From the NCBI GenBank assembly GCA_049517655.1, contig JBEKRQ010000002.1:193059-257058 (forward strand): a stretch of 64,000 nt of DNA, in the 5' to 3' direction. Of the stretch, positions 5,137 through 53,508 are shown piece after piece. The notes under the pieces are model-generated. The model was not told the origin of the DNA. It did not search any database and worked only from the letters and a program-made list of their open reading frames with translations. Source of the DNA: Verrucomicrobiota bacterium (GTDB lineage: Bacteria; Verrucomicrobiota; Verrucomicrobiia; Limisphaerales; UBA11358). The position numbers were made by a program, and so were the translations under genes. Position 1 is the first letter of the stretch, and every line of letters starts with the position of its first letter.

Positions 5137-6360
5137 TCAGGGAAGTGAATTCAGAAAATGCAAAAGCAAATTTTTGCCGCGCTCCAATTCCTCCAGCGAA
5201 ATCCATTCGTCCGACGTGTGCGCCTGTGCGATGTCGCCGGGACCGAACACCACACTCGGAATTCCGGCGCGTGATAAAACCGCCGCGTCGCAAAAATAGT
5301 CCACGCCGACCGGCTTCAACTGGCCGACACTGTGAAGAAACCGGCGAACCAGCGGCAGCCCCGGATTCGTCTCCAGCGGCAAACACGGCTCGAGTTTCGT
5401 GCTGGAAATCTTCGCGCTCAATTTCTTTGCGCGCAGCCACGCGGAAATTTCCCGCCGCACGCCGCTTTCCATTTCGTCCGGCAGCGTGCGCCGATCAACG
5501 GTGATGGTACAATGGTCTGGCACGATATTCGGCTGCGTTCCACCGCGAATCGTGCCGACGTTAATCGTCGCGGTGCCAAGCAACGGATGACGGCGTTTTC
5601 GCAAGCGCGCGGCGTAATCCGTTTCGAGCGCGTCCACGATGCGCGCCATTTCGTGAACGGCATTTTTGCCGAGCTGCGGTGTTGCACCGTGTGCCGCCTT
5701 GCCATGCGTTTCAAGCTCCAGCCAAATGCTGCCTTTGTGAGCGGTGACGACCTGCAATCGCGTCGGCTCGCCGACAATCGCCAAATCCGCCTTGAATCCG
5801 CTGGCCGCCAGCGCGCGCGAACCGGCTTGTGCGTTCTCTTCGTCAATCAAACCGGCGAAGACGATTTCGGTTTCCTTCGGACGCGATTTCATCAATTCGC
5901 AAAGCGCGGAGAACATGGCAGCAACGGAACCTTTTGTGTCGCAGGCGCCGCGTCCGTGCAGACGACCGTTTTTGCGACGCGGAACAAATTGCGAATCGCC
6001 GGCGTTGACGGTGTCGAGATGCGGAGCGAGCAGGATGGTCTGGCGGATTTTGTTTCGCGGCAGCAGACGCACAATGAGATTGGAACGAGCCAAATCGGAT
6101 TCTCTTGTTTGGTGGGGCGAGTGTCCTCGCGAGCCGGTCTTGGACTGCGGTGACATGTCACCGCTTTCTAAAGCGCGGACACGTCCGCGCACTCCAAACA
6201 CTTTTTGAAATTCAACCTCAAGCCCAGTGCGTTTAGCAGCGCTGGCAAGAAAATCGGCGACGCGTTTTTCCCCAGCATGCGGATGGTGCGGCGGAAGAAA
6301 AGCTGGGTTTACGCTGGGCAGCGCAATGAGTTCAGCCAGGAGTTTTTCCGTGCGCGTCAT
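5137..6360 (-). CDS. M20-family metallopeptidase (ArgE/DapE-type deacylase) carrying an in-frame repeat insertion
   Basis: LLAELIALPSVNP..., LLAPHLDTV, GRGACDTKG, GLIDEE, and a C-terminal GPGDIAQAHTSDEWISLEEL motif typical of ArgE/DapE. I start at ATG 6360 (MTRTEKLL); the ORF-track start at 6429 is the GTG of a repeat element. Confidence 0.8.
   Translation of the reverse strand: MTRTEKLLAELIALPSVNPAFLPPHHPHAGEKRVADFLASAAKRTGLEVEFQKVFGVRGRVRALESGDMSPQSKTGSRGHSPHQTRESDLARSNLIVRLLPRNKIRQTILLAPHLDTVNAGDSQFVPRRKNGRLHGRGACDTKGSVAAMFSALCELMKSRPKETEIVFAGLIDEENAQAGSRALAASGFKADLAIVGEPTRLQVVTAHKGSIWLELETHGKAAHGATPQLGKNAVHEMARIVDALETDYAARLRKRRHPLLGTATINVGTIRGGTQPNIVPDHCTITVDRRTLPDEMESGVRREISAWLRAKKLSAKISSTKLEPCLPLETNPGLPLVRRFLHSVGQLKPVGVDYFCDAAVLSRAGIPSVVFGPGDIAQAHTSDEWISLEELERGKNLLLHFLNSLP
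6104..6192. repeat. cluster of three short palindromes embedded in-frame in the M20 gene
   Basis: GGGGCGAGTGTCCTCGCGAGCCG (22/23 match to 21978-22000), GCGGTGACATGTCACCGC (perfect 18-bp palindrome), and GCGCGGAC-AC-GTCCGCGC. Confidence 0.85.
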
Positions 6361-6369
6361 GGCTTCAGA

Positions 6370-6429
6370 GTGGCACAGGCTTCCAGCCTGTGAAAAGTAA
6401 TTACTCCACAGGCCAGAGGCCTGTGCCAC
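6370..6429. repeat. REPIN-like double hairpin, GTGGCAC family, copy 1
   Basis: GTGGCACAGGCTTCCAGCCTGTG-AAAAGTAATTACTC-CACAGGCCAGAGGCCTGTGCCAC: two hairpins in inverted orientation with inverted termini. Confidence 0.9.
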
Positions 6430-7306: not shown

Positions 7307-9466
7307 TCAAACAATTTCCACCGGGCATTTCGGCAGCGCATCGAGAAACGCCTGGCCGTATTGCTTCGATAAAATTCGGTTGTCCAAAATCACAATGATG
7401 CCGGTGTCGGTCTTGGTCCGGATCAACCTTCCCACGCCCTGACGGAATTTCAGAATCGCTTCCGGCAATGAAAATTCGCTGAAAGAATTCCCGCCGCGCG
7501 CTTCAATCGCCTCGATGCGCGCCTCGATGAGCGGATGGTCCGGCACGGCAAACGGCAGCCGCGTGATGATGACGTTGCTCAAGGCCTCGCCCGGCACGTC
7601 CACGCCCTGCCAGAAACTGTCCGTGCCGAATAACACCGAGTCCACGTCGTCCTTGAATTTTTCCAGCATCGTCGAGCGCGGCGTGCCGGTGCCCTGCACA
7701 AAACAGGCGACGCCGAGCTTGTTGAAAAACGGTTCCATCCGCTCGCCGAGTTCCCGCATGAGCTTGTAATTCGTGAACAGCACGAACGCCTTGCCGTGCG
7801 TTTGCCTCACGAAATGCCCAATCCAATGCTCCAGCGCGTCGGCGTAGCCGGCTTCGCGCGGGTCAGGCATTTTGCTGGCGACGAACAGTTTCATTTGCCG
7901 CTCGTAATCAAACGGCGTGCCGACCTGGAGTTGAGTGGCGGATTCCGCGCCGATGCGGCGGATAAAATAATTCAAACCCGAGGCGGATTTTTTGGGGCTA
8001 TTAGTAGCCAATAGTCCGTAGTCCGTGGCTTTTGTCTTTGACCGCGTTGCTGTGGACCACTGACCACTGACTACTGACTGTGTTGCCAGCGTCGCGCTGG
8101 TCATTATGATGCTCGTGTCGCTCTCAAAAAGTCGGCGGCGCAGGAAATCCGCCACGTCAATCGGCGCGGCATTCAGCGCGAGATTTTTCTGCGCCTTGCC
8201 GCCGCGCTCGACCCAGTAAACGTGGTCGGCGGCACTTTGTTCGAGGAACGCCTTCACCTCCTCACGCAACTCATCCAGCCGCCGGTTGCATTCAATCAAT
8301 TCCTGTCCAATATCTTTGTCTTCGCTCGTTTTGATCAAATCGCTGACGGCCTCGCGCAATCGCTGAATCGACAGTGTGACGTTGTCCTTGACGAGTTCCG
8401 CCCGCCGGATGCGCAGTTCGATCCAGCTTCGTTTGGTAGCGCGGGATTCCGTCGAGCCGAACCGGTCATTCCCGGCTGTTTTGGCCAGTTTCTCACACGC
8501 TTCTTCAACGTTTTCAAAAAACTTGTCGGATTCGCTCAAGATGTCGGCCACCAGTTTCACTGCGCTGCCTTTGCGCAACGTGGCGAGCAGCCCCTTTTCC
8601 GTGCGCGGATTCCAGAGCCGGTTCAGCGCGTAACGCATCTGGCCGCTCGACACGCTCAAGCCGATGTGTTTCGACGCGACGCGCTCCATCTGGTGCGCCT
8701 CATCGAAAATCACGAAATCGTTCTTGAACAAAATACCGCCCTCGATTTCCTCCTCGATGCCGCCGAGCAGCGTGAAAAACAGAGTGTGATTCAACACCAG
8801 CACGTCCGAGGAAAGAAACTTGTTCCGCGCGCGCTGAAAGAAACAAACGCCATGGTCCTTGGCGAAATCGGACGGGAAACCACATACCTTTGGCGAGCAA
8901 AGTCCACGCTCGGAACAAACCTGCGCCCAGACCTTCGGGTCCGGCTCGACGTCGAAATCCGAAAGGCTGCCATCCCTGGTTTTCTTTGCCCATTCGGCGA
9001 TGCGCTGAAGTTCCTCGGTCTCGGACGACGTGAACAGGTTGCCTGATTGCTGCATGGCCTTGTGCAACCGGCGTGTGCAGAGATAATTCGCGCGTCCTTT
9101 GAGCATCGAGAAACTGAACTTCACCGGCAGAATTTGGACAAGCATTGGCAGGTCTTTTTCCACAAGCTGCTCCTGCAAATTAATGGTATGCGTGGAAACG
9201 ACGGCTTTCTTCTTTTGCGCGACGGCGAACAGAATCGCCGGGATCAGGTAGGCAATCGACTTGCCGACGCCCGTGCCGGCCTCGACCGCGAGATGTTCTC
9301 GGTTTTGCAACGCCCGCGCGACGGCGACGGCCATTTCCTGCTGCTGCGGGCGAAATTCAAAATTCTTCGCCTTCGACAAAATGCCCGTCGGCGAAAAAAT
9401 CGCTTCGACCTGTTTCACCAGATCAATGCCCGCTCCGGCGGGCTGATGTTCGATGATCGAGATCAT
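7307..9466 (-). CDS. dinG: ATP-dependent DNA helicase, DinG/Rad3 (XPD) family
   Basis: Walker A AVEAGTGVGKS, DEAH box FDEAHQM, C-terminal helicase motifs (SATLA..., FWQGVDVPGE, QGVGRLIR). Contains an in-frame repeat-derived segment at about 7995-8095. Confidence 0.85.
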   Translation of the reverse strand: MISIIEHQPAGAGIDLVKQVEAIFSPTGILSKAKNFEFRPQQQEMAVAVARALQNREHLAVEAGTGVGKSIAYLIPAILFAVAQKKKAVVSTHTINLQEQLVEKDLPMLVQILPVKFSFSMLKGRANYLCTRRLHKAMQQSGNLFTSSETEELQRIAEWAKKTRDGSLSDFDVEPDPKVWAQVCSERGLCSPKVCGFPSDFAKDHGVCFFQRARNKFLSSDVLVLNHTLFFTLLGGIEEEIEGGILFKNDFVIFDEAHQMERVASKHIGLSVSSGQMRYALNRLWNPRTEKGLLATLRKGSAVKLVADILSESDKFFENVEEACEKLAKTAGNDRFGSTESRATKRSWIELRIRRAELVKDNVTLSIQRLREAVSDLIKTSEDKDIGQELIECNRRLDELREEVKAFLEQSAADHVYWVERGGKAQKNLALNAAPIDVADFLRRRLFESDTSIIMTSATLATQSVVSGQWSTATRSKTKATDYGLLATNSPKKSASGLNYFIRRIGAESATQLQVGTPFDYERQMKLFVASKMPDPREAGYADALEHWIGHFVRQTHGKAFVLFTNYKLMRELGERMEPFFNKLGVACFVQGTGTPRSTMLEKFKDDVDSVLFGTDSFWQGVDVPGEALSNVIITRLPFAVPDHPLIEARIEAIEARGGNSFSEFSLPEAILKFRQGVGRLIRTKTDTGIIVILDNRILSKQYGQAFLDALPKCPVEIV
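8002..8084. repeat. composite heptamer arrays inside the dinG-like gene
   Basis: TAGTAGC..TAGTCCG TAGTCCG (8002-8025), CTTTTGTCTTTG (8029-8040), CCACTGA CCACTGA CTACTGA CTG (8057-8080). Confidence 0.85.
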
Positions 9467-10616: not shown

Positions 10617-13256
10617 CTATTGTTGCGAATCTTGTCCACCAAACAAATCCATCTGCGGCGGCGGGGTAAGCTGTTTGAGTTTGTCGCGGTCCTGCTGGCG
10701 GCGGGGGCTTTGTCGCACTGTGCCTTCCGGTGTCAGTTCGGATTCTTCGAGGTTGCTGAGAATCACCTTCGCACGTTCCAACACTTCCTTCGGCACACCG
10801 GCCAGACGTGCGACATGGATGCCGTAACTCTTGTCCGTGCCGCCCTCAACGATTTTGTGCAGGAACACCACCTGATCGCGCCACTCGCGCACGGCCACAT
10901 TGAAGTTCTTCAGCCTTGGCAGGCGCTGGGCGAGTTCGGTCAATTCGTGGTAATGCGTCGCGAACAGCGTTTTCGCACCGACTTGGTTGTGCAGGTGCTC
11001 GACGATGCTCCACGCGAGACTCAAACCGTCGAATGTGCTCGTGCCGCGCCCGATTTCGTCGAGCACAATAAGGCTGCGCGGCGTGGCGTTGTTGAGGATG
11101 TTTGCCGTCTCCGTCATTTCGACCATGAACGTTGACTGTCCGCGTGTAAGATCGTCGCTGGCACCAATGCGCGTGAAGATGCGGTCCACCAAATCAATCC
11201 GAGCCTCCGCCGCCGGCACGAACGAACCACTGTGCGCCAGCAAAACAATCAATGCGACCTGCCGGATGTAAGTGCTCTTGCCCGCCATGTTCGGCCCCGT
11301 GATGAGCGCGATTTGGGGGAAAATGGTGGGGACGCGCTGCTGCGCGTCCTGGCCGACCGGCAGGTCGGCCCTACCAACCGAACCTAGCCCCGCATCATTC
11401 GGCACAAACCGCTCGTCCATCAAACTTTGCTCCAGCACCGGATGGCGTCCGTCGTGAATCTGAATCACGCCTTCGTCAGCAACCTGCGGACGGCAATAGT
11501 TGTGCAGGCGCGCCGTCTCGGCGAACGACGCCAGTACATCGAGTTGTGCGAGTGCCGCGGCGGTTTGCTGAATTTTCGGCAATTGACCGAGCACTTCCTC
11601 ACGCACGCGCTGGAAGAGTTCGTATTCCAGTTTTACGCTGCGTTCCTCCGCGCCGAGGATTTTACCTTCCATCTCCTTCAACTCCGGCGTGATGTAACGC
11701 TCGCCGTTGGCGACGGTCTGCTTGCGGACGTAATGCGGCGGGACCTTGTCGAGGTTCGACTTCGTGACTTCGATGTAGTAGCCGAAGACGGAATTGAACC
11801 GGACTTTCAGCGAGGTGATGCCGGTGTGTTCGATCTCCTGTTGCTGGAGTTTCGCAATCCAATCCTTCCCGCCACGCGTGGCGTCACGGAGTTCATCGAG
11901 CGCGGCGTCGAAACTGTCACGAATCATGCCGCCTTCCTTCACCGCGAGCGGCGGGTCATCCACGATGGCGCGCGAAATCAAATCCACGAGGTCGGGCGAT
12001 TCGGTGAGCTGGGATTCAAGCTCGCCTAGGAGTGGAACAGGCCTCTGGCCTGTTTTGCCTTCTGAAATTTGCAATTTGTCAGAACACAGGCCGGAGGCCT
12101 GTGCCACACTTTGCAAAATCCCCTTCACCGCCGGAATTTGCTCCAAGGCCAGGCGCAGGACAACGAGGTCGCGCGCATTGCCGCTGCCGGAACTCAACCG
12201 GCCAATCGTGCGTTCCAAATCACGAACGTTTACAAGCTGCGCACGAAAATTATCCAAACCCGCAGAGTTCTCAACGAACGTCTGAACGGCGCCCTGCCGG
12301 CAGCGAATGGGCTCGACGGCGGCGAGCGGTTGCGAAAGCCAGTCGCGCAAGCGGCGCGCGCCCATCGGCGTGACAGTGCGATTGACCACGCCGTAAAGCG
12401 AAGCGTTGCGCGGCGCGTCGTGGCGCAACGGCTCGAGAATTTCGAGATGCCGGAGTGTCGTGTAATCGAGCGCGAGGAAATCGTTGCGGCGATAAAACGA
12501 CAGGCGGGTGAGGTGCTTCACGTCGCGGCGCAGGTGTTGCGTGAGATAATGCAGCGCGGCACCTGCCGCGCCAATGGCCGCCATCCTGTCCTTTAGCCCG
12601 AACCCGTCGAGCGACGCGACCTTGAAATGGTCGCGCACGGTGTAGAGTGCGGTTTCCGGTGCGAACGTCCAATCGTCGTAGCCATTCAAAATTTTAAACG
12701 CGCCGCGCAGCAAATCGCGCAGTGTACCCGCCTCGCCCGGATAAATAATTTCCGCCGGGCGCAAGCGTTCCAGTTCAGTGAGCAGCGCCGAATCATTTTC
12801 CAATTCCGTCGTCCTGAAATCGCCCGTGGTCAAATCCACCAGCGCGAGGCCGAAGGTTTTTCCCAGTGGGTAAATTGCGGCGAGGAAGTTGTTGCGTTCA
12901 GCCACAAGCATCCGTTCATCGAAATGCGTGCCGGGCGAGAGGATTTGGGTGACCTCGCGTTTGACGAGCTTGCCGGGTTGGGCGTCTTCAAGTTGATCGC
13001 AAATGGCGACTTTCCGTCCGGCCTTGAGCAGTCTGCCGATGTAGGCATGGGACGCATGGTGCGGCAGACCGCACATGGGCACGCCGTTGCGCGCGGTGAG
13101 GGCGAGGTTGAGCAGTTGCGCGCCTGTCTGCGCGTCTTCGAAAAACATCTCGTAGAAATCGCCGAGCCGAAACAGCAACAGCGCATCCTTGGGCAATTCG
13201 CCTTTGATGCGGCGATACTGCGTCATCATGGGAGTGAGTTGGGCTTCGGCGGCCAT
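10617..13256 (-). CDS. mutS: DNA mismatch repair protein MutS
   Basis: N-terminal TPMMTQYRRIK...FYEMFFEDA, Walker A ITGPNMAGKST, DEIGRGTSTFDG, FATHYHEL. The ORF-track start 13262 is TTG; the first ATG is 13256. Contains an in-frame repeat at 12032-12107. Confidence 0.95.
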   Translation of the reverse strand: MAAEAQLTPMMTQYRRIKGELPKDALLLFRLGDFYEMFFEDAQTGAQLLNLALTARNGVPMCGLPHHASHAYIGRLLKAGRKVAICDQLEDAQPGKLVKREVTQILSPGTHFDERMLVAERNNFLAAIYPLGKTFGLALVDLTTGDFRTTELENDSALLTELERLRPAEIIYPGEAGTLRDLLRGAFKILNGYDDWTFAPETALYTVRDHFKVASLDGFGLKDRMAAIGAAGAALHYLTQHLRRDVKHLTRLSFYRRNDFLALDYTTLRHLEILEPLRHDAPRNASLYGVVNRTVTPMGARRLRDWLSQPLAAVEPIRCRQGAVQTFVENSAGLDNFRAQLVNVRDLERTIGRLSSGSGNARDLVVLRLALEQIPAVKGILQSVAQASGLCSDKLQISEGKTGQRPVPLLGELESQLTESPDLVDLISRAIVDDPPLAVKEGGMIRDSFDAALDELRDATRGGKDWIAKLQQQEIEHTGITSLKVRFNSVFGYYIEVTKSNLDKVPPHYVRKQTVANGERYITPELKEMEGKILGAEERSVKLEYELFQRVREEVLGQLPKIQQTAAALAQLDVLASFAETARLHNYCRPQVADEGVIQIHDGRHPVLEQSLMDERFVPNDAGLGSVGRADLPVGQDAQQRVPTIFPQIALITGPNMAGKSTYIRQVALIVLLAHSGSFVPAAEARIDLVDRIFTRIGASDDLTRGQSTFMVEMTETANILNNATPRSLIVLDEIGRGTSTFDGLSLAWSIVEHLHNQVGAKTLFATHYHELTELAQRLPRLKNFNVAVREWRDQVVFLHKIVEGGTDKSYGIHVARLAGVPKEVLERAKVILSNLEESELTPEGTVRQSPRRQQDRDKLKQLTPPPQMDLFGGQDSQQ
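12032..12107. repeat. REPIN-like double hairpin, GTGGCAC family, copy 2 (inside mutS)
   Basis: Minus strand: GTGGCACAGGCCTCCGGCCTGTG-(30 nt)-AACAGGCCAGAGGCCTGTTCCAC. Confidence 0.9.
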
Positions 13257-13357
13257 CGGCAACGAAACTAAACATGAATATCGGCCGCGTCGAAGAATTT
13301 TTGCGCGTTGCGAAGGACCTGACGAACCACGCTTAACGTTGACAGAGTCGTCAGATT

Positions 13358-17349: not shown

Positions 17350-17795
17350 TGAATGAAGAAATGGAACAGTTTGAACAACGCTTGAGTCGTCAGCCGCTAA
17401 AGGGAATTCCAGCGGAATGGCGCGGGGAGATTTTGTCGGCGGCTTGGGAGGGACGGCGTGTCGCCGTCCCTGAAATTGGGGACGCCAACATGGCGTCCCT
17501 CCCAAAATTACGCGATTGGCTTTTAGCCATCCTGTGGCCTCATCCGCGGGCGTGGGCCGGCCTGGCAGTGGTTTGGATTTTGATTTTAACGGTGGATTTT
17601 TCGGTGCGCGACACATCGCAAACTGTCGCCGGGAAATCTTCGCCACCATCGCCGCAAGTCATCACGGAACTGCGGCAGCAGCAACGGCTGCTGGCCGAAC
17701 TGATTGGTTCGCGCGAAACGCACGATGCCGATCGGACCAAACCGTTCGTGCCGCAGCCGCGCAGCGAGCAGCGTTTTGAAATTTTGACAACGTAG
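17346..17795 (+). CDS. putative anti-sigma factor (single-pass membrane protein)
   Basis: ATGA start/stop overlap with the sigma gene. One hydrophobic helix (WAGLAVVWILILTV). Assigned by position only. Contains an in-frame repeat at 17445-17504. Confidence 0.45.
   Translation: MMNEEMEQFEQRLSRQPLKGIPAEWRGEILSAAWEGRRVAVPEIGDANMASLPKLRDWLLAILWPHPRAWAGLAVVWILILTVDFSVRDTSQTVAGKSSPPSPQVITELRQQQRLLAELIGSRETHDADRTKPFVPQPRSEQRFEILTT
17445..17504. repeat. GGGAGGGACG-family double hairpin, copy 1 (inside the anti-sigma-like ORF)
   Basis: TGGGAGGGACGGCGTGTCGCCGTCCC-TGAAATTG-GGGACGCCAACATGGCGTCCCTCCCA. Confidence 0.9.
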
Positions 17796-17797
17796 GC

Positions 17798-17865
17798 CGG
17801 GAGGGACGGCGTGTCGCCGTCCCAAAAACCCGAAACCATGGATGCTGATATGGCATCCATTCCAA
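17798..17865. repeat. GGGAGGGACG-family double hairpin, copy 2 (degenerate second arm)
   Basis: CGGGAGGGACGGCGTGTCGCCGTCCC-AAAAACCCGAAACC-ATGGATGCTGATATGGCATCCATTCCA. The second arm differs from copy 1 mainly by transitions. Confidence 0.8.
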
Positions 17866-25110: not shown

Positions 25111-28100
25111 ATGTCGCACGCGGATTTTGTTCATCTTCATCTGCACACCGAGTATTCGTTGCTCGATGGCGCCTGCCGTGTGGACAAGCTCGTCGAGAAG
25201 GCGCATGAACTGAAATTCCCCGCGCTTGCCATCACCGACCACGGCGTGCTTTACGGCGCGATTGACTTTTACAAGGCTGCGAGAGAGAAGGGCATCAAAC
25301 CCATCATCGGTTGCGAGGCGTATGTCGCGCCGGGCAGCCGGTTGGAAAAGAAAGCCGCCGGCGGGGGGCGCGATGTTTATCACCATCTGCTGCTGCTGGC
25401 CAGGGACGCGACCGGCTACAAAAACCTCATCAAGCTCACCACGGAGGCGCATCTCACCGGCTATTATTACAAGCCGCGCATAGACAAGGAACTGCTCGCC
25501 GCGCACAAGGACGGGTTGATTGTGCTATCGGGCTGCCTTGCCAGTGAAATTCCCGAATGGATTCAAAAGGACCAGCCGGACAAGGCGCGCGCGGCCATTG
25601 ACTGGTTCAAGCAAACGCTCGGCGCAGACAATTTTTATCTCGAACTGCAAAATCACGGCATCGCGGAACAGGCGAAGGTGAACCGCCACCTGATTCAATG
25701 GGCAAAGGAATTCGGCTTGAAGCTCGTCGCGACGAACGATGTGCATTACATCGAGAAGAGCCATTCGCACGCGCACGACTGCCTGATTTGCATCGGCACG
25801 CAGATGCAGCTCGCCGACACGAAACGAATGCGCTACGAGCCGGAGCAATTTTATCTGCGCTCGGCGGAGGAAATGAAGGCGCGCTTCGCTGACACGCCGG
25901 ACGCGATCAAAAACACGCTCGAAGTCGCCGAGAAATGCAACGTCGAGATCCAGTTCGGCAAGCTGCATTATCCCGTCTTCACCCCGCCGGAACATTTCAC
26001 GCGCGAGGGTTATTTGCGCAAGCTGGTCGCGGAAGGATTATTCCGCCGCTATACGATTCACGCCAAAGCCGAGGGGAAGGAATTCCTCATCGAGGGAATT
26101 GATGATCCGAAGCGATTGCCAACATTTGATGTGGGACAGGCTTCCAGCCTGTCTCAAACTTCAAATGGAACTGCTCCCAAGAAAGAAGGCGACAGGCAGG
26201 ATGCCTGTCCCACCTTGGATGATCCCACCGTCGCCGCAGCCATCAAAGCCGTGTTGGATCGGTTGAAACTTGAACTCGCGGTTATTGAAAAGACCGGTTT
26301 CATCAGTTACTTTCTCGTCGTCGGCGATTTCATCCGCTACGGGCACGAACACGGCATTGCTTGCGTGGCGCGCGGTTCCGCCGCCGGTTCGATTGTCACT
26401 TACCTGCTGGAAATTTCAAACGTGGACCCGATCCGCTACGGCCTGCTGTTCGAGCGCTTTCTCAATCCCGAACGCATCAGCCCGCCGGACATTGACATTG
26501 ATTTTGCCGACGACCGCCGCGCCGATGTCATCGAGTATGTCCGCGAGAAATACGGACGCGATTCCGTCGCGCAAATCATCACCTTCGGCACGATGGGTGC
26601 GAAGTCCGTCGTGCGCGACGTTGGCCGTGTGATGGGTTTGAGCTACGGCGACTGCGACCGGCTCGCCAGGATGATTCCGTTCGATTTGAAGATGACGCTT
26701 GAAAAGGCGCTCAAGCAGTCACCGGAATTCAAGGAGGCTTACGAAGCCGAGGAAGCCACGCGCGAGTTGGTTGACACCGCGCTTATTCTCGAAGACATCA
26801 CGCGCAACGCCTCCGTCCACGCTGCCGGCGTCGTCATCGGCGACCAGCCGCTGGTGAATCTGCTGCCGCTCAAGCAGGACGAAAGCGGCACGCTTGTCAC
26901 GCAATACGCGATGAATCCCGTCGGCGACCTTGGCCTGTTGAAGATGGATTTTCTCGGGCTGAAGACGCTGACCGTCATCCGCAACGCGTGTGAAATGGTC
27001 AAGCGCACGCACGGCATTGAAGTGCCGATCGATAATCTGCCGCTCGACGACGCAAAGACCTACGACCTGCTCAATCGCGCGGAAACGCTCGGCGTGTTCC
27101 AATTGGAATCCGGCGGGATGCGGGATTTGTGCCGCAAATTTCAAATCAGTTCCATCGAGCACATCACGGCGCTGGTCGCGCTTTATCGTCCGGGGCCGAT
27201 GGAATTGATTCCCGAATTCATCCGCCGCCGGCACGGTGAGGTAAAGATCGAGTATGAACATCCGTTGCTCGAACCGATTACGCGCGAGACGTACGGGATT
27301 TTGATTTATCAGGAGCAGGTGATGCAGGCCGCGCAGGTGCTCGCGGGTTACACGCTCGGCGGCGCGGATTTGCTCCGGCGCGCGATGGGCAAAAAGAAGC
27401 GGGAGGAAATGGCCAAGCAACGCGCCATTTTCGTCAAGGGCTGCAAGGAGAAAAATCATATCCCCGAAAAAAAGGCGAATGAGATTTTTGACTTGCTCGA
27501 AAAATTCGCAGGCTACGGCTTCAATAAATCACATGCCGTCGCCTACGCCATCGTTGCGTATCAAACCGCTTATCTGAAGGCGAATTATCCGGTGGAATTC
27601 CTGTGCGCCATGATGACGAATGACATGGCAGACACTGCGAAACTCGCGCAGTTCATCAACGAAGCGCGTGAGTTCGACATCGAGGTTTTGCAGCCGGATG
27701 TCAACGAAAGCCAGGTTTATTTCGCGCCGGCACGGGATGGCAAGGCCATTCGCTTCGGTCTCGCCGCCATCAAAGGCGTGGGCGAAGTCGCGGTGGAAAC
27801 CATTTTGAAGGCGCGGAACGAAGGCGGAAAATTTAAATCGCTCTCCGATTTGTGCGAGCGGGTGGACAGCCGTACGGTGAACCGGAAAATTTTGGATGCG
27901 CTCATCAAATCCGGCGCGTGCGATGGTTTCGGCCAGACGCGTGCCACGCTTTGCGCCCAAATCGAACGCACTTTGGGCCGCGCCGCGAGCATCACCTCCG
28001 ATCGCCAGCGCGGGCAAAGCTCCCTTTTCGGCGTGCTCGAAGAAAAAGCGCCGCAGATGCCCGAGTCCATCAGCAATTTGCCCGAATGGCCGCAACACGA

Positions 28101-28800
28101 ATTGCTGGCGCATGAAAAGGAACTGCTCGGTTTCTACGTCACCGGCCACCCACTCACGCCTTACGCGCCATTGCTGGAAAAATACGCGCTGACGAACACG
28201 GCGAAACTCGCGGAATTGCCGAATCGCAGCCTGACACGCATCGGCGGATTGATCGCGGTGGTTCAAAACGGTGTGGCGAAGAAAAGCGGCAAACCGTATT
28301 CGATTATCACACTCGAAGACCTCGAAGGCTCGGTCCAAGTGCTCTGCATGAATGAAAACTATGACAAATACCGTGAGTTGTTGAAGCCGAACAAGGCCAT
28401 TTTTGTCATTGGCGAAGCGAATACCAGCGATGAACGCCCGAAAATTTTCCCGCAGGAAATTCTGCCACTGGAGGATGCGCCAAAAAGATTCACCAAACAG
28501 GTTCATTTGCGTCTGCACACGGCGCATTTGCAACCGGAACAACTGGATTCCGTGCGCGAGCTTGTTGCGGCGCATCCCGGCAAATGTCCGCTGCTTCTCT
28601 GCTTCATGCGTCCGGGTGGTGAAGTGATTTTTATGGATACGAACGAACGTTTTAGCGTCACGCCGTCGTTGAAATTGCAGCAGGAAGCCGACGCGCATTT
28701 TGGCGAGGAGACTTACTACGCGAAAGTGGATACGAGTTCGCCTGAACGCACACCGCGCCGTTGGGAACGTAAAAATGGATACAACGGCGGCGGGGAATGA
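25111..28800 (+). CDS. dnaE: DNA polymerase III alpha subunit
   Basis: PHP domain FVHLHLHTEYSLLDGA, palm/fingers (YFLVVGDFI..., PDIDIDF, GLLKMDFLGLKTLT, YQEQVMQ, GYGFNKSHA) and an OB fold at the C-terminus. Contains an in-frame repeat at 26131-26213. Confidence 0.97.
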   Translation: MSHADFVHLHLHTEYSLLDGACRVDKLVEKAHELKFPALAITDHGVLYGAIDFYKAAREKGIKPIIGCEAYVAPGSRLEKKAAGGGRDVYHHLLLLARDATGYKNLIKLTTEAHLTGYYYKPRIDKELLAAHKDGLIVLSGCLASEIPEWIQKDQPDKARAAIDWFKQTLGADNFYLELQNHGIAEQAKVNRHLIQWAKEFGLKLVATNDVHYIEKSHSHAHDCLICIGTQMQLADTKRMRYEPEQFYLRSAEEMKARFADTPDAIKNTLEVAEKCNVEIQFGKLHYPVFTPPEHFTREGYLRKLVAEGLFRRYTIHAKAEGKEFLIEGIDDPKRLPTFDVGQASSLSQTSNGTAPKKEGDRQDACPTLDDPTVAAAIKAVLDRLKLELAVIEKTGFISYFLVVGDFIRYGHEHGIACVARGSAAGSIVTYLLEISNVDPIRYGLLFERFLNPERISPPDIDIDFADDRRADVIEYVREKYGRDSVAQIITFGTMGAKSVVRDVGRVMGLSYGDCDRLARMIPFDLKMTLEKALKQSPEFKEAYEAEEATRELVDTALILEDITRNASVHAAGVVIGDQPLVNLLPLKQDESGTLVTQYAMNPVGDLGLLKMDFLGLKTLTVIRNACEMVKRTHGIEVPIDNLPLDDAKTYDLLNRAETLGVFQLESGGMRDLCRKFQISSIEHITALVALYRPGPMELIPEFIRRRHGEVKIEYEHPLLEPITRETYGILIYQEQVMQAAQVLAGYTLGGADLLRRAMGKKKREEMAKQRAIFVKGCKEKNHIPEKKANEIFDLLEKFAGYGFNKSHAVAYAIVAYQTAYLKANYPVEFLCAMMTNDMADTAKLAQFINEAREFDIEVLQPDVNESQVYFAPARDGKAIRFGLAAIKGVGEVAVETILKARNEGGKFKSLSDLCERVDSRTVNRKILDALIKSGACDGFGQTRATLCAQIERTLGRAASITSDRQRGQSSLFGVLEEKAPQMPESISNLPEWPQHELLAHEKELLGFYVTGHPLTPYAPLLEKYALTNTAKLAELPNRSLTRIGGLIAVVQNGVAKKSGKPYSIITLEDLEGSVQVLCMNENYDKYRELLKPNKAIFVIGEANTSDERPKIFPQEILPLEDAPKRFTKQVHLRLHTAHLQPEQLDSVRELVAAHPGKCPLLLCFMRPGGEVIFMDTNERFSVTPSLKLQQEADAHFGEETYYAKVDTSSPERTPRRWERKNGYNGGGE
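26131..26213. repeat. REPIN-like double hairpin, GTGGCAC family, copy 3 (inside dnaE)
   Basis: GTGGGACAGGCTTCCAGCCTGTC-(37 nt)-GACAGGCAGGATGCCTGTCCCAC. Confidence 0.9.
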
Positions 28801-32864: not shown

Positions 32865-32940
32865 GGTAGGGACGCGCGGCCCGCGCGTCCGGCGGAAGTT
32901 CCGCCTCCCAACCCGGTCGCCTCGGCGAGGTGACTCTACC
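32865..32940. repeat. GC-rich multi-hairpin element with GGTAG...CTACC termini
   Basis: GGTAGGGACGCGCGG-C-CCGCGCGTCC, GGCGGAA-G-TTCCGCC, GTCGCC..GGCGAG, ending in TCTACC. Confidence 0.8.
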
Positions 32941-32980
32941 TTTGTTTTTGTAGCGGCGCTCTATGAGCGCCGGTGAAATC

Positions 32981-33039
32981 GGTAGGGCGGCGCTACTGCG
33001 CCGCCGGGGATGATGGCCGCGCAGCAGCGCGGTCCTACC
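32981..33039. repeat. REPIN-like double hairpin with GGTAGG/CCTACC termini
   Basis: GGTAGG-GCGGCGC-TACT-GCGCCGC-CGGGGATGAT-GGCCGCGC-AGCA-GCGCGGTC-CTACC. Confidence 0.85.
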
Positions 33040-35707: not shown

Positions 35708-35787
35708 TGGGAGGGACGCCGTGTCGGCGTCCCTTATATTTGGGACGGCAACCCGGGCTACGCCGAGGCGAGCATGCCGTCCCTCCC
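35708..35787. repeat. GGGAGGGACG-family double hairpin (copy 3) in the etfB-etfA-like spacer
   Basis: TGGGAGGGACGCCGTGTCGGCGTCCC ... GGGACGGCA...TGCCGTCCCTCCC. The termini are inverted repeats. It occupies most of the 97-bp spacer. Confidence 0.85.
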
Positions 35788-53403: not shown

Positions 53404-53508
53404 GTAGCACCCGCGTCTCGCGGGTTGTTTCGGGCGTCACGCCCGAAACTGAATCAGTGGAGTAATTCGGCGGGACGCCAAATTAAACCCGCCAGAGGCG
53501 GGTGCTAC
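53404..53508. repeat. REPIN-like element with GTAGCAC...GTGCTAC termini
   Basis: GTAGCACCCGCG-TCT-CGCGGGT, TTTCGGGCG-TCA-CGCCCGAAA, spacer, CCCGCC-AGA-GGCGGG-TGCTAC. The outer 11 nt are inverted. Confidence 0.85.

Follow-up and report, generated by a model that had tools for sequence, protein, structure and literature searches.

A GTGG-Tagged, REPIN-Like Double Hairpin Carried in Frame within mutS of a Limisphaerales Bacterium

Introduction

The closest described relatives of the element treated here are the GTAG-tagged repetitive extragenic palindromes (REPs) defined by Di Nocera, De Gregorio & Rocco (2013, BMC Genomics 14:522; PMC3733652), who also catalogued cases carried in frame within genes. 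In that catalogue the verrucomicrobium Opitutus terrae has the most intragenic GTAG REPs, and the GTAG-20 family includes a variant with a GTGG head. More than half of the intragenic inserts are dimers, encoding 20–30 aa. Frequent hosts are genes of DNA replication and repair (uvrA, dnaE2, polA, recBCD, ligase and, in Rickettsia conorii, dnaE), and in one case, Xanthomonas recB, different REPs occupy roughly one position (PMC3733652). The subject of this paper is a 76-nt double-hairpin element in the mutS gene of a Verrucomicrobiota bacterium of the Limisphaerales (UBA11358; assembly GCA_049517655.1). It lies in a 64,000-nt stretch of contig JBEKRQ010000002.1 (positions 193,059 to 257,058, forward strand), which we call the window. 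Coordinates are those of the window unless another locus is named.

The mutS element is like the GTAG REPs of Di Nocera et al. in its GTAG head degenerating to GTGG, its stems in the 6–9-bp range, its inverted dimer structure, and its association with genes for REP-associated tyrosine transposases (RAYTs), the combination being called a REPtron (PMC3733652). It is unlike them in that the host is a Limisphaerales metagenome-assembled genome, and in that 13–15 families alternate at each mutS site. A preliminary description of the window, made from its letters alone, had called translated carriage of such an element unusual. That was an overstatement, since in-frame REPs were catalogued in 2013 (PMC3733652). 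In-frame REP carriage is already known, and what is new is mutS as a host gene. It was not found among the host genes in the portions of the text and supplements of PMC3733652 that were accessible, nor in wider literature searches.

Two other systems bear comparison. In the REP doublets known as REPINs, from Pseudomonas and E. coli (Bertels & Rainey; Nunvar; Ton-Hoang; PMC6006769), two inverted REPs form a larger hairpin and the RAYT gene is flanked by cognate REPs, as is the case here. In-frame REP insertions have been noted even inside RAYT genes, those of subclass 2.4 (PMC6006769). Classical REPINs are overwhelmingly extragenic, whereas two of the three dimers of the mutS family in the window, and about a fifth of the copies in a wider census, are genic. 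The Rickettsia palindromic elements (RPEs) were described by Ogata et al. (2000, Science 290:347). RPE-1 is longer than the mutS element. Like the mutS element, RPEs are palindromic repeats that lie in frame within the genes of functional proteins, R. conorii dnaE being one, and their presumed place is in surface loops (PMC3733652). Unlike it, they belong to another phylum, and RPE-4 and RPE-6 are the repeats CGTC-4 and CGTC-1, for which no dedicated transposase is known (PMC3733652). The mutS element is GTGG-tagged, and no CGTC occurs in its 76 nt. The preliminary description had likened it to the RPEs. The likeness is thus one of function, and the sequence superfamily is a different one.

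Anatomy of the Element in mutS

The element and the gene that carries it are made up as follows.

10617..13262, minus strand: mutS open reading frame (ORF), 881 aa from a TTG start (879 aa in the public annotation)
12085..12107, minus strand: REP unit 1, GTGGCACAGGCCTCCGGCCTGTG on the coding strand, with a GTGG head, 8-bp stem and TCC loop; codes VAQASGLC
12055..12084, minus strand: spacer, 30 nt, AT-richer; codes ..SDKLQISEGK..
12032..12054, plus strand: REP unit 2, inverted, GTGGAACAGGCCTCTGGCCTGTT on the plus strand; the coding strand codes TGQRPVP
MutS residues 386–410: insert at what we call site 1
Junction peptides predicted if the insert is translated: e.g., GILQSVAQASGLCSDK and TGQRPVPLLGELESQLTESPDLVDLISR

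Positions 12032–12107 thus form a double hairpin of two inverted 23-nt REP units around a 30-nt spacer. On the coding (minus) strand, from 12107 to 12032, it reads GTGGCACAGGCCTCCGGCCTGTG, then the spacer, then AACAGGCCAGAGGCCTGTTCCAC. The two GTGG heads face outward. Each arm is itself a hairpin, with GTGG in front of an 8-bp GC stem and a 3-nt loop, and the complementarity between the two arms is 88%. Folded as RNA, the element has a z-score of −6.3 relative to shuffles. The ORF stays open across the whole element, as the preliminary description had stated, running ..AVKGILQS VAQASGLCSDKLQISEGKTGQRPVPL LGELESQLTESPDLVD.., and the element's own conceptual translation is VAQASGLCSDKLQISEGKTGQRPVP. 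Four of its six frames are free of stops. The flanks (CAAAGT/GTGG..CCAC/TCCTAG) show no target-site duplication. An Rfam scan of the window returned only one tRNA and no RNA family at the element. An intein or intron was considered and rejected: no such domains or structure are present, the element has only 76 nt, and the same sequence is intergenic elsewhere.

The Repeat Family and Its Association with RAYT Genes

The mutS element is a member of a repeat family, as the preliminary description had expected, with copies elsewhere in the window and in many genomes. A search of the window for the 23-mer with up to 3 mismatches gave 4 matches against 0.00 expected, and the pattern ACAGGC-N5-GCCTGT gave 6 matches, each a unit, against 0.14 expected. 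These make three dimers, all inverted, with spacers of 14, 30 and 37 nt. The two outside mutS are the following.

6370..6429, no strand assigned: dimer with a 14-nt spacer, intergenic, flanked by divergent genes, one of them for an M20 peptidase, whose probable ATG (6360) it precedes by 10 nt
26131..26213, plus strand: dimer with a 37-nt spacer, in frame in dnaE (25111..28800, plus strand), aa 341–368; codes VGQASSLSQTSNGTAPKKEGDRQDACPT

Both had been listed in the preliminary description, correctly, although it missed that the second is in frame in dnaE. Both genic dimers of the window are therefore in frame, and the predominantly extragenic location typical of REPs does not hold for this family there.

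We assembled 211 REP copies from the window and from fetched loci of relatives. Four stem positions vary, and at each of them 3–4 pair types occur with Watson–Crick pairing kept in 206–210 of the 211 copies. The loop, read from the head, is TCC or TCT. Of the heads, 200 are GTGG and the other 11 are GTAG. REPs of the mutS family occur several times per 22-kb locus in relatives, and single units are also found alone and in tandem.

One such relative (locus L006) has a RAYT gene with the HUH motif NHVH that is flanked on both sides by REPs of the mutS family. Its product matches Pfam Y1_Tnp at 29.7 bits (cut-off 23). The best NCBIfam match is REP_Tyr_transpos, the REP-associated tyrosine transposase, with E = 5e-20 and 71.8 bits, which is below that model's 80-bit cut-off. 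With NHVH, WQ and YIRQNP as its motifs, the protein is consistent with subclass 2.7 as defined by Quentin et al. (PMC6006769). Four further RAYT loci (L146, L161, L169 and L135) have mutS-family REPs about 130–160 nt away on either side. The preliminary description had called the element REPIN-like, and the GTGG/GTAG heads, covarying stems, inverted pair and RAYT gene flanked by the same REP in relatives all bear this out. The mutS element is best read as a GTAG/GTGG-type REPIN, and it is RAYT transposases, of the HUH-Y1 class, for which REPs of this type serve as substrate.

The spread of the family was surveyed by a census of the exact 23-mer GTGGCACAGGCYTCYRGCCTGTG in contigs of GTDB genomes (L008–L127), where at least 120 stretches contain it. 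The exact 23-mer occurs in Verrucomicrobiota, Planctomycetota, Desulfobacterota, Cyanobacteria (e.g., Moorena and Prochloron), Binataceae, Terriglobia and others. Such a range implies that the REP/RAYT pair has spread horizontally, or else that conservation is very strong. Copies within ORFs of at least 250 aa number 31 of 142, and all six frames are used among the genic copies. Ten of the census ORFs were tested, and eight prove to be real genes, including RecG twice and HrpB.

The Inserts in the MutS Protein

The window's MutS matches E. coli MutS structures with E = 2e-185, and all five MutS Pfam domains are recorded for a public sequence (P0001) that is 100% identical to it over the aligned length. 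It is intact at all 56 columns that are invariant in a 127-sequence alignment, among which are the F36/E38 mismatch motif and the P-loop (656–663). Since every invariant residue is kept, the protein looks functional.

The insert at site 1 has no counterpart in E. coli MutS or in 140 diverse MutS representatives. The segment holding it is 47 aa long in the window, versus a median of 26 aa in those representatives, and E. coli MutS has an 18-aa gap there, between A388 and P389. A gap in orthologues at this place, and a loop in the structure, had both been predicted in the preliminary description. An AlphaFold2 model built from the 127-sequence alignment is confident overall (mean predicted local distance difference test score, pLDDT, 91.4; predicted template modelling score 0.90). 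At site 1 the pLDDT falls to 58 (residues 391–400) and 54 (401–410), and it is below 50 at 398–404. The insert is modelled as coil, with a helix at 376–389 before it and another at 411–418 after it. From the E. coli domain boundaries we take the site to be in the core domain. Together, the comparison and the model show a lineage-specific insert in a loop that is predicted to be permissive and disordered.

A second insert of the same general kind is present further along the protein.

11325..11375, minus strand: site-2 insert, an in-frame GTAG..CCAC heterodimer of the hairpins GGCCGACC/GGTCGGCC and GGACGCGC/GCGCGTCC

It codes GRADLPVGQDAQQRVPT, MutS residues 630–646, directly ahead of the strand leading to the P-loop. 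E. coli MutS has gaps totalling 19 aa immediately upstream of that strand. The segment has 39 aa in the window and a median of 21 aa in the 140 diverse MutS, and the insert is again without counterpart in these and in E. coli. The pLDDT is 53 at 631–640 and 69 at 641–650, and the insert is modelled as coil between strands at 622–627 and 651–655. A core repair protein would thereby tolerate two selfish hairpin elements that are presumably translated. Numbered on the window's MutS, sites 1 and 2 follow aa 385 and aa 626. There is also a third insert site, after window aa 185, which is empty in the window.

Variation among Relatives

The relatives compared are the 120 closest MutS sequences (P0001–P0120), with 84–100% identity. 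The first, P0001 (879 aa, with the start placed two codons downstream), occurs on 63 contigs from NCBI, JGI, ENA and Logan, and five more clusters at about 100% identity bear the insert. Site 1 is occupied in all 120 relatives. The occupants fall into 15 repeat families, and their DNA shows these to be distinct REP dimers with GTAG or GTGG heads. At site 2 there are 13 families, and in one relative (P0074) this site is almost empty.

Sharing of a family at the mutS sites decays quickly with divergence. About 90% of pairs share at core identities of at least 98%, and at 95–98% the share is 12–18%, which equals background. Which family is at one site says nothing about the family at the other, even when only strains with 90% identity or more are considered, although some of the metagenome contigs could be strain-chimeric. 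Fitch parsimony on a neighbour-joining tree requires at least 54 and at least 55 changes for the two sites. Sharing of a family predicts local identity only in the 40-aa window beside the insert, by about +0.02. Alleles of the same family share their spacer, and therefore shared descent; for the window's allele the spacer is conserved across the 25 relatives compared. Shared descent combined with free assortment leads to recombination within mutS, repeated replacement, or both. The pattern as a whole suggests frequent recombination within mutS and/or rapid replacement of the inserts. Recombination within mutS has been reported in E. coli.

Among carriers of the window's allele, the mean pairwise identity is 85.6% in the insert versus 92.5% in the rest of the protein, so that the insert evolves about twice as fast. 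The peptide is not what is conserved at site 1, which holds 15 different families in relatives.

Nested or duplicated elements are seen at site 1 in P0013, P0015, P0018 and P0020 (L005 10001–12802). In these cases a dimer with the spacer ..AKGELVQSVQEEHRSE.. adjoins a dimer of the window type, and the same type of spacer flanks the RAYT gene of L006.

The dnaE gene has two hot spots among the 120 relatives. One is the site of the 26131–26213 copy, and the other we call site B.

27721–27759: DnaE site B, after aa 874; empty in the window

The junctions at site B differ in frame and carry additional unrelated bases. Two further genes in the window also hold palindromic inserts, which are absent or different in orthologues. 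A DinG-like helicase (7307..9466) has an in-frame palindromic insert at 7979–8077 (minus strand), coding SVVSGQWSTATRSKTKATDYGLLATNSPKKSAS, at the same site as a REPtron in L006. The M20 peptidase (5137..6360) has an in-frame insert of three hairpins, about 35 aa long (hairpins within 6109–6192, minus strand), which is missing from the L006 orthologue. A small number of permissive loops in mutS, dnaE, the DinG-like helicase and the M20 peptidase are REP hot spots in this Limisphaerales clade.

RAYT Genes in Frame inside Host Genes

In some relatives, what lies inside the helicase or DnaE is an entire REPtron, consisting of a REP dimer, a RAYT gene and more REPs, without interruption of the host frame.

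L006 13696–16599: helicase with REPtron, 967-aa uninterrupted ORF, orthologue of the window helicase at 7307..9466
L128 2001–6470 (P0337), and P0354: DnaE with REPtron, uninterrupted ORFs of 1489 and 1483 aa

In the helicase and DnaE hosts the RAYT has no stop codon of its own, and the DnaE copies have no ATG ahead of the catalytic core. We examined the best 80 metagenome loci encoding relatives of the L006 RAYT (L131–L210). The RAYT is inside a much larger ORF in 43 of these 80 and is a stand-alone gene in the remaining 37. Pfam was run on 14 of the 43 ORFs and gave as hosts the DinG-like helicase, CarB at two sites, restriction–modification methylases of the Eco57I/MmeI type, an N6_N4 methylase, a DUF1156 protein, a UDPGP protein and a radical SAM protein. 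Quentin et al. took RAYT proteins of unexpected length for fusions or errors and dropped them from their survey (PMC6006769). The accessible portions of PMC3733652 make no mention of in-frame RAYT genes, and literature searches for a RAYT inside a polymerase gene yielded nothing beyond PMC3733652 and PMC6006769. Of whole RAYT genes in frame within host genes we found no description.

It is possible that in these bacteria the REP/RAYT system regularly inhabits disordered loops of large, often essential proteins, with dimers turning over at fixed loop positions and the RAYT repeatedly in frame and perhaps produced as a domain inside its host. We offer this tentatively, and with rather less than even confidence. 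If it is true, carriage in DnaE and the helicase would put a single-strand DNA transposase at the replication fork.

Origin and Maintenance of the Element

We propose that a REPIN copy was mobilised by a RAYT encoded elsewhere in the genome, and that it would have landed in, or recombined into, the disordered loop that joins two helices in the core domain of MutS. It would persist by being stop-free, in frame and harmless, read through as about 25 disordered and tolerated residues, and other genic insertions would be purged by selection. Since four of the six frames are stop-free, a frame-compatible length may be the main filter for survival. The window's copy itself would have been inherited, or gained by allelic recombination, from close relatives with the same spacer, and would not be a de novo insertion. 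REP dimers of many families may replace each other, or be shuffled by recombination, at the permissive loops. The element is then best seen as a selfish or neutral passenger and not as a working part of MutS. We hold this account as a whole to be probable (roughly 0.8): the anatomy, the in-frame carriage, the restriction to the lineage, the predicted loop, the covarying stems and the RAYT link in relatives are shown, and mobility, neutrality, translation and the mode of turnover are inferred.

Several observations weigh against this account. A tblastn search of the 64-kb window gave no RAYT gene. An empty site 1 is not found among the 120 close relatives, so that the insertion event is unseen, and MutS relatives at 63–70% identity already hold degenerate inserts there. 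The spacer is fairly well conserved, and constraint beyond the hairpins is possible. At DnaE site B, where filled and empty alleles can be compared, there is no clean junction, target-site duplication or conserved target.

The constant occupation of site 1 would also suit the idea that the insert is kept for a benefit to the host, with the hairpin tuning expression or allowing a reversible loss of MutS (a mutator switch), or with the loop altering MutS activity. Di Nocera et al. speculated on altered activity for REPs in repair genes (PMC3733652). The hairpin is strong (−42.1 kcal/mol), and genes of replication and repair are found with REP inserts again and again: the window has mutS and dnaE, the census adds two RecG cases and HrpB, and the published catalogue lists uvrA, dnaE2, polA and recBCD (PMC3733652). 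However, hot spots are also found in the peptidase, CarB, a tRNA synthetase, a glycosyltransferase and a xanthine dehydrogenase-type enzyme, so that these data do not establish an enrichment in repair genes. In large proteins with many domains there are simply more loops that can take an insert. The peptide is unconserved between relatives, both mutS inserts are predicted to be disordered, and the invariant residues of MutS are all intact, and we regard a host benefit, the main alternative, as unlikely.

Much less probable again is a conventional miniature inverted-repeat transposable element, i.e., a deletion derivative of a DDE insertion sequence with terminal inverted repeats, moved by the transposase of that sequence and with no relationship to RAYTs. 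A length of 76 bp with inverted ends would be ordinary for one, and DDE transposase genes do lie near mutS in relatives (IS1595-type in L002 and DDE_Tnp_1 in L005). Against it, both arms form hairpins of their own behind a GTRG head, units are found singly and in tandem, the same units flank RAYT genes, and there is no target-site duplication at either the mutS copy or DnaE site B. The source genome was evidently assembled from a metagenome, and assemblers can be misled by repeats, so a repeat-induced mis-joining inside mutS, through assembly or binning, also has to be weighed. The preliminary description had named such an artefact as something that would overturn it. The identical MutS on 63 contigs from four sources, together with the five further clusters, makes this hardly conceivable. 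The same allele is present with small differences in dozens of independent assemblies, the frame is kept, and the k-mers commonly used by assemblers (e.g., k141) exceed the element in length.

If the element is a REPIN passenger, there are consequences for annotation. Inserts of this kind explain odd low-complexity peptides (VAQASGL.., GTGFQPV.., VGTRSTAS..) and the length variation of core genes in Verrucomicrobiota and Planctomycetota. They also mark loops of MutS and DnaE that are permissive to insertion. The hot spots with alternating families, and the RAYTs in frame, provide a natural system in which to study how a REP/RAYT pair spreads and how proteins absorb insertions. The pattern may also help to tell whether selection, targeting or accident accounts for the presence of such inserts in genes of replication and repair.

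Other Palindromic Repeats in the Window

The window as a whole is rich in such structures. It contains 37 GC-rich perfect hairpins, versus 5–16 in shuffles, and further hairpin families with GTAG heads are present. Other REP-like families are located at 32870–33005, at 53404–53508, and at 17444–17505, 17803–17823 and 35712–35734. They include three consecutive intergenic hairpins with GTAG heads, a GTAGCACCCGCG.. dimer that has one more hairpin at its centre, and a GGGAGGGACGSCG hairpin in four copies.

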